64,000 nucleotides of DNA from a virus (lineage: Duplodnaviria > Heunggongvirae > Uroviricota > Caudoviricetes): the IMG/VR virus record IMGVR_UViG_3300031087_000527, positions 81,384 through 145,383 of that record. The stretch is one strand, 5' to 3'. The notes under the pieces were generated by a model. That model saw only the letters and a program-made list of their open reading frames with translations, was not told where the DNA came from and did no database searches. The translations under genes were made by a program, and so were the position numbers. Shown here one piece after another: positions 59,488-62,111 of the stretch (its first letter is position 1; each line of letters opens with the position of its first letter).

Positions 59488-59672
59488 TAAAACATGGCCT
59501 GCTTGCTGTTTTTGGTGGTAAAACAGGCAGGCTTTATAAAATATGTGCAAAAAGCGATCAGTTGATTAAAATAGTGAAAAAAAGAGTTGTACTTGATGAT
59601 CGGATAGCGTATTATTCTCTACATCGAAACGAGAGATAGTTTTTAAAAATCAAAACGTTGAGATAAAAAATA

Positions 59673-59701
59673 TTGTACGGATAAGTGAAATAGAGTAGAA
59701 T
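59673..59701 (+). promoter_or_regulatory. tRNA promoter
   Basis: TTGTAC-N17-TAGAAT, 8 nt upstream of tRNA-Arg. Confidence 0.8.
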
Positions 59702-59709
59702 AAAACAAT

Positions 59710-59786
<77 letters not shown>

Positions 59787-59805
59787 CTTTTACTAAGGAG
59801 TTATT

Positions 59806-59967
59806 ATGTGTGCTGATAGTTGGTCTTTAGAAAAAGGTGAGGTTGCTGATGGTGTATGTCCTGATTGTGAAATGGATACACTTGATGGATATGCTGTGGA
59901 GGGATGTAATTATTCTCCGGTTGTATGTGAAACGTGCGGACATGCTCCGTGTGATGCTTCTTGTTAG
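59806..59967 (+). CDS. Cys-rich mini-protein (53 aa)
   Basis: AAGGAG RBS; CPDC, CETC and additional Cys. Confidence 0.7.
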   Translation: MCADSWSLEKGEVADGVCPDCEMDTLDGYAVEGCNYSPVVCETCGHAPCDASC

Positions 59968-59972
59968 TGAAA

Positions 59973-60048
59973 GGCCCCTTAGCTCAGTGGTTAGAGCAGG
60001 CGACTCATAATCGCTTGGCCGTTGGTTCAAGTCCAACAGGGGCCACCA
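59973..60048 (+). tRNA. tRNA(CAU), Ile2 (ileX-like)
   Basis: GGCCCCT acceptor, GGCGA-CTCATAA-TCGCT arm, nearly the enterobacterial ileX sequence as I recall it. Confidence 0.92.
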
Positions 60049-60130
60049 ACACTTCATATTCTCCTATGTGGGTGTTCTTTACTGCTTGTGTTAAAAAATA
60101 AGTAAAGGAAGCTGGTTAACTTCCTTTTAT

Positions 60131-60216
60131 GCCTCAGTGGTGAAATCGGTAGACACAAGGGATTTAAAATCCCTCGGCTTATGGCTGTACCAGTTCGAGT
60201 CTGGTCTGAGGCACCA
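60131..60216 (+). tRNA. tRNA-Leu(UAA)
   Basis: Type II body, loop TTTAAAA, long variable arm, CCA. Confidence 0.93.
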
Positions 60217-60244
60217 AAAAAGCAATAAAAAGTTGAAAAAAGAG

Positions 60245-60273
60245 TTGTGCATCATGATAGAGTTTGATATGAT
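60245..60273 (+). promoter_or_regulatory. Promoter of distal tRNA/tRNA-like cluster
   Basis: TTGTGC-N17-TATGAT; related to promoters at 59588 and 62960. Confidence 0.75.
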
Positions 60274-60317
60274 GATGTTCTTGATGTGAAGCAGTAAATA
60301 GTTGATTTAAAAGTAAT

Positions 60318-60394
60318 GCGCCGTTAGTTCAGTTGGATAGAACAACCGCCTTCTAAGCGGTAGGTCGCTGGTTCGAGTCCAGCACGGTGCACCA
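60318..60394 (+). tRNA. tRNA-Arg(UCU)
   Basis: GCGCCGT/ACGGTGC, ACCGC-CTTCTAA-GCGGT, CCA. Confidence 0.95.
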
Positions 60395-60399
60395 GAGTT

Positions 60400-60721
60400 T
60401 TCCGGTATTGCTGGTTAAACTTGTCTTATTTAGGTTGTAACTTAAAAAATTCATCCTTCTGATAAAAGTGTACAAAGCTTAACAGTTGTGAAACAGGTAA
60501 GCTTTATTTGGCCCGTTAGCTCAGTTGGTAAGAGCAATCGACTCATAATCGAGAGGTCGCTGGTTCAAGCCCAGCACGGGCCACCAAATCTGTGATATAT
60601 TTACGATGGCTACATCTTGCAAAGATGCGCCAGAAATAAATAGAGGTTTCTTTAATGGGTGGAGCTTTCGGGCGTTGAACCCTGTTAAAAGAGAATCACT
60701 TTCGGACGCCAGTAACCGGAA
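60400..60721 (+). ncRNA. Structured RNA region enclosing the tRNA at 60510
   Basis: Long-range helices 60400-14/60709-21 and 60458-70/60697-706 plus internal hairpins. Confidence 0.45.
60510..60586 (+). tRNA. tRNA(CAU), probably Ile2
   Basis: GGCCCGT/ACGGGCC acceptor, loop CTCATAA, CCA; Met identity not excluded. Confidence 0.9.
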
Positions 60722-60728
60722 TATTTAT

Positions 60729-60951
60729 GTCTCCCTTAGCTCAGTGGTAGAGCCGGGGCTGTAGTTGACAGTGGTTGCGAGATAAAAAGATATTTACGTT
60801 AATCGATGCGTATCAGTTCAAGTCTGATAAGGCTCCAGTAGGAAGCCTTTAGCTCAATGGTAGAGCCTTGGCGGGAAGTTTCCGTGGTCGAGTAAAGAAG
60901 GTGTTATCTCAATAGCAATGCGCGTTGGTTCGAATCCAACAGGGGACACCA
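60729..60951 (+). ncRNA. Two-headed tRNA-like RNA (outer tRNA domain plus inner circularly permuted tRNA domain)
   Basis: Two D-arm/T-arm units whose acceptor and connector helices pair only crosswise; ends in ACCA; no anticodon loop. Confidence 0.8.
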
Positions 60952-60953
60952 AT

Positions 60954-61033
60954 AGGAGAGTGATGGAAGGGGTAGACATCTCTGAAAGGAGTGGCGGCAG
61001 TCATTGAAGGTTCGAATCCTTCCTCTCCAACCA
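60954..61033 (+). ncRNA. tRNA-like RNA with truncated, GAAA-capped anticodon arm
   Basis: GGAGAG/CTCTCC acceptor, D arm, TCT-GAAA-GGA, TGGC-GGCA-GTCA variable arm, GAAGG-TTCGAAT-CCTTC, ACCA. Confidence 0.75.
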
Positions 61034-61040
61034 ATAAAAT

Positions 61041-61175
61041 GGTTTTTTAGCTCAGTTGGTAGAGCGCGAGCGCCAAAAGATCGTTTCTACTTCGGTAGAC
61101 AGCTCCGGCTGGTCAAATGACAACGATTCGATCTTAGGCCAGAGGTCGCTGGTTCGAGTCCAGCAGAAACCGCCA
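61041..61175 (+). ncRNA. tRNA-like RNA with multibranched insert replacing the anticodon arm
   Basis: GGTTTTT/AGAAACC acceptor, canonical D and T arms, GCCA end, about 75-nt folded insert. Confidence 0.8.
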
Positions 61176-61595
61176 GTATTTTTAATCTTTATTTCATTAA
61201 AAAGCAGTATCTTTTCATTAAATCAGCAACGAACGTAACAGTTTTTATTTAGATTTTTATATTGCTGTCAAATACCCATTTTTCATCCATAAAACCATTC
61301 CAGCTATACTTTTCACCTGTATAATTCTCATTTACTTTCACGATATGTTTTTCATATTTTCAGTACATCATTTTAAAGTTCGTTTAAATTGTTAATTTTT
61401 CACAGAAAGCATGTAATGCGTGATTTTTCTATTTTTACTTCTTTCGCCATTATAACTCGTTTAAATTATGTAATAACAAGTTATTCGACCGTTTGTCTTT
61501 CTTTATTGCTTAATTACTATTATTTACTGGTGTTTATTTTATTTTATTTTATTTTATTTTATATATTAATTATTATTTATATTAAAGGGCAAGAA

Positions 61596-62111
61596 ATGAA
61601 AAGAAATAAAAAAGGATTTTCCTTATTAGAGTTACTCTTAACGTTAGGAATCATAGCGGCATTAATAATAGCGGCTTTCATCGTATATCCTAAAGTTCAA
61701 GCGGCTCAAAGAGCGGAATCAGAGTTAAAAAATGTTGCAACTATACAAGCAGGCGTTAAATCTCTTTATAGCGGAATGGCAAATTATCAGGGGCTTAATA
61801 ATAGTGTTCTTATCAATGCTAATGTATTTCCAGAAAACTTACTAAAAGATGGAGATTCTGGAACACAAGCAGTAAATGCATTTGGTGGTAATGTAGAAGT
61901 AAAAAGCACATCTGCTTCTGGAATAGCGGATGCGGGGATTTCTATAAAATATTACAATGTTCCAAGTGATGAGTGTATAAGAATAGCAACAGCATTAGCT
62001 AATAACGTATCCTCTGTGCGAATTAATAACATAGCTACAACGTATACTTCGTTATTGGCGACAAAATGCAGTTCCACTAATAGTAATACTATCGAAATAG
62101 TGTCTTTATAA
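61596..62111 (+). CDS. Type IVb major pilin (PilS-like prepilin)
   Basis: KKG-FSLLE prepilin cleavage/methylation motif, hydrophobic helix, AFGG.V, YYNVP.DEC, C-terminal Cys pair. Confidence 0.88.
   Translation: MKRNKKGFSLLELLLTLGIIAALIIAAFIVYPKVQAAQRAESELKNVATIQAGVKSLYSGMANYQGLNNSVLINANVFPENLLKDGDSGTQAVNAFGGNVEVKSTSASGIADAGISIKYYNVPSDECIRIATALANNVSSVRINNIATTYTSLLATKCSSTNSNTIEIVSL

Follow-up and report, generated by a model that had tools for sequence, protein, structure and literature searches.

Tandem non-decoding tRNA-frame RNA genes in a probable tRNA operon of a giant phage-like element

Introduction

The tRNA operon of phage T4 carries at its distal end two stable RNAs that are not tRNAs, rnaD (species 2) and rnaC (species 1), which are 119 and 139 nucleotides (nt) long. 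To our knowledge, no function has been known for them for about fifty years. Here we describe a cluster that resembles this arrangement in a 64,000-nt stretch of DNA (hereafter the window), which covers positions 81384-145383 of the 259-kb IMG/VR record IMGVR_UViG_3300031087_000527 (record label G000; G+C 38.7%). Three RNAs with a tRNA frame, denoted AB, C, and D, follow ordinary tRNAs behind one promoter, and the anticodon arm of each is replaced by a different structure. The tRNA-Arg, rnaD, and rnaC of T4 are spaced 1 and 6 nt apart and the three RNAs of the window are spaced 2 and 7 nt apart, so the layout is of the T4 type. In T4, one 1.75-kb transcript is the precursor of eight tRNAs and both stable RNAs (PMC2330249).

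T4 rnaC possesses a canonical T arm and an acceptor-like helix. However, the T4 RNAs do not exhibit sequence homology to the cluster (the shared words are 7-11 nt, the best being an 11-nt T-loop word), and they lack the full tRNA frame (D arm and encoded CCA), the two-headed form, and the knob that are found among AB, C, and D.

The engineered tRNA scaffold of Ponchon and Dardel is similar to D, where a foreign folded insert takes the place of the anticodon stem-loop while the acceptor, T, and D arms are retained. Engineered scaffolds with anticodon-stem inserts are processed and stable in E. coli (PMC3753655). The scaffold is man-made, whereas the insert of D is a natural module that is conserved across phages. 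The tRNA-like domain of transfer-messenger RNA (tmRNA) also combines the upper half of a tRNA with a long helix that replaces the anticodon arm and leads to further domains, and it is reported to be processed by RNase P (PMC3985003). Unlike tmRNA, none of the three RNAs possesses G3-U70; position 3-70 is occupied by C-G in AB, by G-C in C, and by U-A in D. They show no evident reading frame for a tag, ARAGORN makes no tmRNA call, and the three RNAs are much smaller.

AB, C, and D were not found described in a literature search. A 2026 preprint on bacterial tRNA mimics deals with other families, and one survey reports that phage contigs contain many tRNA-like candidates.

Materials & Methods

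Positions are those of the window unless another record is named. The window was compared with a close relative record (G001), which is collinear with it over 59600-61176 and of which L019 is a stretch. It was also compared with a related 341-kb record (G002), whose protein neighbouring D is 63% identical to that of the window, and with a 2.1-kb metagenome contig (L058). The sequencing runs were two seed metatranscriptomes (X15 and X16) and two DNA runs (X2 and X4).

The BLAST search of 59600-61300 against phages and plasmids gave matches confined to ordinary tRNAs, and therefore the RNAs were searched one by one. The home-made tRNA-shape scan was noisy and served as a pointer only. The promoter matrix was built from 35 sites of the record, including the site at 60245 itself, and the lead to its motif was the promoter word TTGTGCATGA elsewhere in the record. 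The alignment of AB was fitted to its structural model. The contig ends at 60498 and 61175 were not taken as RNA ends, and stretches that the contigs of the runs leave uncovered were given no weight.

Results

Three tRNA-frame units in tandem

There is no open reading frame (ORF) of at least 80 amino acids (aa) between the end of the upstream gene (59487) and the start of the downstream gene (61389). This interval holds five ordinary tRNAs (ARAGORN and Rfam), including tRNA-Arg(TCT) and tRNA(CAT), and the three units listed below.

60729..60951, + strand: AB, a 223-nt two-headed tRNA-like RNA (RNAalifold, covariation)
60954..61033, + strand: C, an 80-nt class II (Leu-like) tRNA frame (Rfam tRNA 28.2 bits, covariation)
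61041..61175, + strand: D, a 135-nt tRNA frame with a conserved module (Rfam tRNA 43.6 bits, covariation)

The boundaries and the spacers of 2 and 7 nt were read directly from the sequence. Each unit possesses D and T arms, an acceptor stem of 6-7 base pairs (bp), and a discriminator base followed by an encoded CCA, while a 5-bp anticodon stem with a 7-nt loop is present in none of the three. The tRNA family is the only Rfam family that reaches its gathering score over the cluster. Against this family (RF00005, gathering score 29 bits), D scores 43.6 bits (61041-61172) and the 3' half of AB scores 29.4 bits (60845-60948), while C stands just below the gathering score (60954-61030).

The first-pass annotation of this DNA, made from the sequence alone, had described three consecutive RNAs 2-7 nt apart that keep the acceptor, D, T, and CCA elements and alter the anticodon arm each in a different way, and this description is borne out. 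It had also argued that the units are not random pseudogenes. Compensatory changes are found in AB, C, and D alike, and therefore the three are not decayed tRNAs. None of them would decode, since the anticodon arm is replaced in each. The evidence supports AB, C, and D as real, constrained, non-decoding tRNA-frame RNAs behind one promoter.

D carries a conserved knob module

The elements of D are as follows.

61041-61047 with 61165-61171, + strand: acceptor stem of the D frame, with the D arm at 61050-61065, the T arm at 61148-61164, G73, and CCA
61072-61139, + strand: 68-nt module of D, with a GCC/GGC clamp and a 7-bp helix (61077-61083 with 61129-61135)
61086-61099 (UUCG loop), 61100-61111, and 61112-61121, + strand: three knob hairpins of D, followed by the conserved strand AACGAUU (61122-61128)

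The Rfam tRNA model places a 74-nt insert in D where 15 model positions stand. Matches to the insert (61066-61145) are found in Escherichia phage Jgk1 (86% identity), in Pseudomonas phage Littlefix (76%), and in 11 non-mobilizable plasmids with sizes of about 100-115 kb, whose hosts are E. coli, E. albertii, and Salmonella (87-91%). The three D-bearing plasmids that were fetched possess IncFIB or IncY replicons. In RefSeq, the module is present in six of 5,426 complete E. coli genomes, where it is always plasmid-borne and annotated as tRNA-OTHER. The exact-pattern scan for D in species genomes returned nothing.

The tRNA-OTHER genes of the phage-plasmids and the genes of Jgk1 and Littlefix share the whole fold of D (clamp, 7-bp helix, three hairpins, and conserved strand) and thus belong with it, although they sit on different tRNA frames. 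In the alignment of seven sequences, the module is 84-90% identical in the enterobacterial phage-plasmids and Jgk1 and 67% identical in Littlefix, whereas identity in the acceptor and T stems of the enterobacterial phage-plasmids and Jgk1 is no more than 38-46%, with compensated changes. Among the seven sequences (alignment A7), 97.7% of the cells pair, and 26 cells are changed on both sides against 9.6 +/- 2.1 after shuffling and 0-4 with slid partners. The 7-bp helix exhibits a swap from G-C to C-G, and Littlefix carries GUAA in place of UUCG. This difference between module and frame suggests that selection acts on the knob and a generic tRNA shape and not on a particular acceptor identity. 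The knob, being far better conserved than the frame, is probably the working part of D.

The surroundings of the D relatives were also recorded. The relative in the enterobacterial phage-plasmids lies within a small array, and in the E. coli plasmid L075 it is preceded by an 84-nt low-scoring tRNA (1086-1169, 41.6 bits). All three plasmids carry a tRNA-Sec-like match after the D relative (L075:1533-1617, L078, and L079) that scores 43-46.6 bits, where the gathering score is 47. In the isolate DNA run X4, a joint of 61066 to 61143 yields a gene with the D arm and T arm of D and an ordinary 17-nt anticodon arm with GUU (Asn). This gene may be the type of frame from which D was built.

AB is a two-headed RNA

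The elements of AB are as follows.

60729-60734 with 60942-60947, + strand: acceptor stem of the outer head, with the D arm at 60739-60753, the T arm at 60924-60940, A73, and CCA at 60949-60951
60774-60785 with 60904-60919, 60793-60797 with 60892-60896, and 60803-60807 with 60887-60891, + strand: connector helices
60811-60829, 60830-60848, and 60852-60866, + strand: T arm, closed acceptor hairpin, and D arm of the inner permuted head
60758-60772 and 60871-60885, + strand: short capped hairpins, one per head, with loops of 4-5 nt whose letters vary

AB contains two T arms and two D arms that do not form two successive tRNAs. The 5' acceptor strand (60729-60734) pairs after the second T arm (60942-60947) and not after the first. 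The strand past the first T arm (60830-60836) finds its partner ahead of the second D arm (60841-60848) and closes a hairpin. The two halves thus exchange partners: the 5' strand of A joins the 3' strand of B, the 5' strand of B joins the 3' strand of A, and there is no such pairing within the halves. RNAalifold returned 67 pairs from the AB of the window, the G001 copy, and a paralogue in G000 that is 82% identical to AB. With L058 added, 98.5% of the cells of the four sequences pair. Both partners are changed in nine pairs, compared with 2.2 +/- 1.3 after shuffling and 0-1 with slid partners, and these counts lean towards the structure, as the alignment was fitted to the model and has four rows only. 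Each head is modelled as a five-helix junction, where the connector or the short hairpin may occupy the position of the anticodon arm. Neither of them carries a conserved 7-nt loop.

The two heads acquire near-identical D arms and the same AUGCG ahead of the T arm. A one-headed relative of the outer head is found in G002 (L050:1501-1626 on the - strand, equal to G002:C1:181000-181125), which consists of a tRNA frame, a tetraloop hairpin, and a long arm. The long arm starts with GAGAUAAAA, which is common to AB, and the 3' end is CUA and not CCA. The likeness of the heads and this one-headed relative suggest that AB arose through tandem duplication. The full AB was found only in G000 (twice), G001, and L058. 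Searches of the phage and plasmid collections with its central part gave no match, and the exact-pattern scans of viral and species-genome contigs returned G001 only or nothing.

The inner head (60811-60866) exhibits the same order of T arm, closed acceptor hairpin, and D arm as YrlA (RF02553). YrlA is a Y RNA of bacteria and a mycobacteriophage that is modified by tRNA enzymes, and the form of M. smegmatis is cut by RNase P and receives an added CCA (PMC4201824). The same paper warns that dimeric tRNAs give such matches (PMC4201824). AB reaches only 25.1 bits against a gathering score of 69, the Ro60/TROVE domain (PF05731) was not found in the record, and AB ends in a second complete tRNA head where YrlA ends in a Ro-binding helix. 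Weak YrlA matches arise from any tandem tRNAs and were found in 13 of 14 control genomes. The assignment of AB to YrlA was rejected on the weak score, the missing TROVE gene, and these control matches.

C is a Leu-like frame with a stub

The elements of C are as follows.

60954-60960 with 61023-61029, + strand: acceptor stem, with an A1-A72 mismatch in the window and U1-A72 in the relatives
within 60954..61033, + strand: D arm with a 3-bp stem and a GGUAGAC-type loop
60980-60991, + strand: 12-nt hairpin (4-bp stem and GAAA loop) that replaces the 17-nt anticodon arm
60992-61003, + strand: variable arm (4 bp), followed by the canonical T arm at 61006-61022, A73, and CCA at 61031-61033

C is 86% identical over its full length to genes of the Shigella phages Ag3 and MK-13 and the Enterobacter phage EspM4VN (Ackermannviridae), which are annotated as tRNA-Ser(tga) (phage Ag3) or tRNA-Undet. 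These genes share the fold of C (class II frame, A73-CCA, and 12-nt hairpin) and thus belong with it. Among three distinct sequences, 98.6% of the cells pair, and four pairs, including two of the stub, differ on both sides. The loop of the stub is GAAA, GAGA, or UGAG. A covariance model of C (R2) gives 109-114 bits in G000, G001, and Ag3, the only ones among nine records where it found C, and at most 48 bits for ordinary class II tRNAs in those nine records.

The working part of C is probably the frame itself, as it keeps the reported determinants of a bacterial leucyl-tRNA synthetase (LeuRS), which are A73, the U8-A14 and G18G19/T-loop core, and the long variable arm. It has to be considered whether at least C is an aminoacylated, non-decoding carrier that is charged by LeuRS and serves or disturbs the use of Leu-tRNA outside the ribosome, or that titrates LeuRS or EF-Tu. 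C and its phage relatives retain A73, CCA, U8, the Leu-type GG D loop, the canonical T loop, and the long variable arm. For a bacterial LeuRS, aminoacylation depends on those elements and does not require the anticodon arm (PMC2377443). The L/F-transferase is reported to take Leu-tRNA as donor outside translation (PMC4105747). However, this reasoning is drawn purely from the identity elements of other organisms, the window copy of C carries the A1-A72 mismatch, D with its varying discriminator and 3' end falls outside the idea, and it has no basis in AB. We regard such a carrier role as quite unlikely.

Decay or splicing of the units

ARAGORN, with introns allowed, reads D as a tRNA-Val with a 44-nt intron and the AB paralogue as a tRNA-Tyr with a 128-nt intron, and so the units might be decaying tRNA genes or interrupted tRNAs that are spliced to working tRNAs. 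Several observations speak against both. The inserts themselves are maintained by compensatory changes, and the module of D is conserved on different frames. When the called introns are removed, a 5-bp stem with a 7-nt loop is still not formed (judged by eye). The splicing of introns was rejected because there is no match to a group I intron or another Rfam family, RtcB was not found in the record, and no joint among those listed for the RNA runs excises an insert. Decay or splicing can hardly be credited.

Evidence that the RNAs accumulate in seed metatranscriptomes

The depths of the contigs that carry AB to D and of the upstream contigs, which extend into the upstream gene, are listed below. 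Depth is a rough measure.

X15, seed metatranscriptome: AB-D contig 494, upstream contig 62, ratio 7.9
X16, seed metatranscriptome: AB-D contig 723, upstream contig 69, ratio 10.4
X2, DNA: AB-D contig 7, upstream contig 8, ratio 0.87
X4, DNA: AB-D contig 45.6, upstream contig 50.9, ratio 0.90

The AB-D contig is thus 8-10 times as deep as the upstream contig in the RNA runs, compared with 0.9 times in the DNA runs. One contig of an RNA library bridges 60498-61175. There is moderate evidence that the RNAs of AB to D accumulate. A loose end among the contigs of the RNA runs carries the sequence of the AB paralogue.

One promoter precedes the cluster

The promoter is located as follows.

60245..60273, + strand: promoter with TTGTGC, a 17-nt spacer, and TATGAT (predicted transcript start near 60280)

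The first-pass annotation had placed a single promoter here, which is credible. The site scores 29 bits against the matrix of 35 sites to which it belongs, its sequence is 100% identical in G001, and there is no further motif site between 60245 and 62000. The motif is biased to one strand. The word TTGTGCAT occurs in 30 copies on the + strand and one on the - strand, where about five are expected per strand, and most copies acquire TATxxT exactly 17 nt past TTGTGC. Motif sites of at least 15 bits number 52 on the + strand against one on the - strand of the record. A weak variant (7 bits) stands at 59587 ahead of the first three tRNAs. The generic sigma-70 scan did not list 60245-60273.

The record-wide motif consists of an A-rich stretch, TTGTGCAT(GA), a 17-nt spacer counted from TTGTGC, and TATxxT, and it could define the transcription units of the element. 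The same motif stands directly 5' of the AB paralogue (G000:162018; paralogue region 161980-162238, outside the window), where the -10 ends about 9 nt before the first base of the RNA. The paralogue is therefore a gene with its own promoter.

The downstream gene (61389-62111) encodes a type IV prepilin of the PilS/bundlin type (PF08805, PF05307, and N_methyl). It does not possess a promoter of the element's own type, and tRNA-like punctuation is established in mitochondria. On these grounds, the units might act in cis as processing or stability signals for the operon transcript or for this pilin-like gene. However, the units adjoin one another and not ORFs, in relatives D is followed by tRNA-Leu and not by the PilS-like gene, and the AB paralogue with its promoter-like site stands alone as a gene. 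The knob of D and the second head of AB also greatly exceed, in elaboration and conservation, what a cutting signal would require. We judge a cis-acting role to be very unlikely.

Canonical tRNAs and spacers

The remaining features of the cluster are as follows.

60318..60394, + strand: canonical tRNA-Arg(UCU) with encoded CCA (ARAGORN and Rfam, 70.5 bits)
60510..60586, + strand: canonical tRNA with CAU anticodon (ARAGORN and Rfam, 69.2 bits)
60399-60415 with 60709-60724 (span 60399..60724), + strand: possible long-range helix around the CAU tRNA, putative (RNAfold)

Both tRNAs are present as had been claimed from the sequence. The CAU tRNA is of the elongator Met or Ile2 type and not an initiator, as it possesses G1-C72. 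The claim that it is enclosed by a structure is not confirmed. The 335-nt stretch 60395-60729 folds better than its shuffles (z -3.1), but this stretch includes the tRNA, and the flanks alone give z -0.8 to -0.9. The sole relative that covers both strands of the helix is too similar for a covariation signal.

The slot of tRNA-Arg is occupied in G001 (L019:7401-7479) by a different Arg(TCT) paralogue with about 82% identity and many compensated changes, while the flanks are near-identical. The pattern resembles the swapping of a cassette or a gene conversion.

A hairpin (AAAGGAAG...CUUCCUUU; window 60104-60127) and the tRNA-Leu(TAA) after it make up a module, which is located before the promoter in G000 and after D in G001 (L019) and L058.

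Cassettes with separate distributions

G001 is 92% identical to the window over 59600-61176 and 97% over 60590-61200. However, the composition of the cluster differs among close strains. AB is joined straight to D in L058 and in contigs of X15, X16, and X2, where the 86 nt that hold C are skipped, and run X4 carries 333 other letters where C stands in the window. The repeat ACCAAT, which is formed by the CCA ends, flanks the C cassette. In G002, L059, and L060, D lies about 100 nt after tRNA-Met without AB or C. C and D each occur singly in unrelated phages, in other arrays than the cluster and never together with the other two cluster RNAs, while AB is confined to this lineage. The loss or replacement of C, the solitary D of the G002 lineage, and the swap of the Arg paralogue show that the array is a shuffled collection of cassettes and a unit only loosely.

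The region 60300-61200 was also traced in sequencing runs. At least half of the sampled words are held by 14 runs, and the 20 rows with any part of it represent 16 studies. The metagenome runs are mostly from plant, phyllosphere, seed, soil, and silage.

These distributions bear on the proposal of the first-pass annotation that the RNAs form a system that counters immunity that targets or senses tRNAs (anticodon nucleases, PARIS, toxin tRNases, and RelA). On this reading they would be co-adapted and act as decoys or sponges. The proposal is consistent with the cassette-like gain and loss among close strains, with the location among accessory genes and ordinary tRNAs, and with the many such RNAs that extra tRNA-like matches suggest for the record. 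Phage tRNAs are reported to counter tRNA-cleaving defences (PMC10264068, PMC11464382, and PMC11555353). On the other hand, AB, C, and D do not travel together, and so the notion of one co-adapted unit does not hold. The anticodon loop, where known anticodon nucleases act, is missing from all three RNAs, and so they could trap only enzymes that recognise the upper body or the CCA end. The selected part of D also appears to be the knob and not the tRNA frame. We consider counter-defence by such a system unlikely.

Other genes of the record and its relatives

CheckV places G000 in its 'provirus' class at 91% completeness. The longest ORF of the 259-kb record is 656 aa, and several TnpB/IS605-like transposases are among the few matches of the longest ORFs. 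A search of 20 ORFs of up to 656 aa from outside the window against PHROG and Pfam gave nothing informative except TnpB-like transposases, an M49 peptidase, and a PcfJ-like protein.

ARAGORN identified a CTA tRNA (amber suppressor type) at G000:C1:248866-248939 and a tRNA with a 4-base anticodon (agaa) at G000:C1:155071-155147. With introns allowed, it also identified a 'tta' tRNA with a 144-nt insert at G000:C1:251764-251996. In G003, a 358-kb record with direct terminal repeats, L043:1402-1525 on the - strand holds a tRNA frame (47 bits) where a different insert of about 50 nt replaces the anticodon arm.

Discussion

We think it rather likely that the cluster forms the distal portion of a tRNA operon carried by a giant phage-like element, where three separate non-decoding tRNA-frame RNA genes have been gathered. 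The promoter at 60245-60273 would give a precursor of about 0.9 kb with tRNA-Arg(UCU), the CAU tRNA, and the three tRNA-frame RNAs. Each unit would present an acceptor/T-arm stack, a D/T elbow, and a discriminator with CCA to the tRNA-maturation enzymes of the host. Cleavage by RNase P would place the 5' ends at 60729, 60954, and 61041, trimming of the 2- and 7-nt spacers would stop at the encoded CCA, and stable RNAs of 223, 80, and 135 nt would result. Such processing is a reasonable inference and the most economical reading of the tRNA shape, the spacing of 2-7 nt, the T4 precedent, and the engineered tRNA scaffolds.

In place of the anticodon arm, AB would carry a connector to a second permuted head, C a 4-bp tetraloop stub, and D a long helix with a three-hairpin knob. 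The three RNA genes would move as cassettes between phage tRNA arrays, and the tRNA frame would provide processing, stability, and access to tRNA-binding partners.

Several points weigh against this account. The contigs do not reveal 5' or 3' ends, strand, or processing. DNA carry-over into the RNA libraries is possible, although the ratio compared with the DNA runs argues against it. The D relatives of the G002 lineage and Jgk1 end in CCC or CCU and that of Littlefix is without CCA, so an encoded CCA is not universal in the D family. The discriminator of D also varies (G, A, U, and C), which argues against a fixed amino-acid identity. At position 56 of the inner T loop of AB (window 60821), the window copy and L058 have C but G001 and the paralogue have A, and the GG of the inner D loop (60861-60862) is changed to GA in G001. 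As A stands at position 56 in two of the four copies, the inner elbow may be non-canonical and without the usual G19-C56 pair.

The nature of the element and of its partners also has to be weighed. No phage hallmark was found among the ORFs tested, and the label rests on IMG/VR, so we write phage-like rather than phage. Terminase_6N was not found in G000, and 10 ORFs of the window gave no structural match against PHROGs. A partner protein was not found in the record by domain searches, where the Pfam domains Response_reg, PTH2, PolyA_pol (CCA-adding), RtcB, and TROVE (PF05731) gave zero matches in the whole of G000. The functional tie to REC-like and PTH2-like genes that had been suggested by the first-pass annotation is therefore without basis in these searches, as neither Pfam domain is found anywhere in the record.

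With the distal-operon account retained, we favour a role in trans, with a conserved host factor from translation, tRNA metabolism, or defence as the target. A bolder proposal, which we advance only tentatively, is that AB, C, D, and a dozen or so others in the element form an undescribed 'tRNA-chassis' class of phage effector RNAs where the frame is the vehicle of delivery and stability. The knob of D might then bind a conserved proteobacterial factor, AB might bridge two tRNA-binding sites, and C might be a chargeable non-decoding leucine acceptor. Jointly they might manipulate host translation, tRNA metabolism, or tRNA-directed defence.

Conclusions

The cluster indicates that stable RNAs at the end of a tRNA operon are not an oddity of T4. 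Three designs of tRNA-frame RNA without an anticodon stand behind one promoter, each under purifying selection. Two of the three designs recur in cultivable phages or phage-plasmids of E. coli, Salmonella, Shigella, Enterobacter, and Pseudomonas, and so the question can be tested directly in laboratory strains. The reason for tRNA genes in phages is a matter of debate. Databases file the relatives of the cluster RNAs as odd tRNAs under the names 'tRNA-OTHER', 'tRNA-Ser', and 'tRNA-Undet'.

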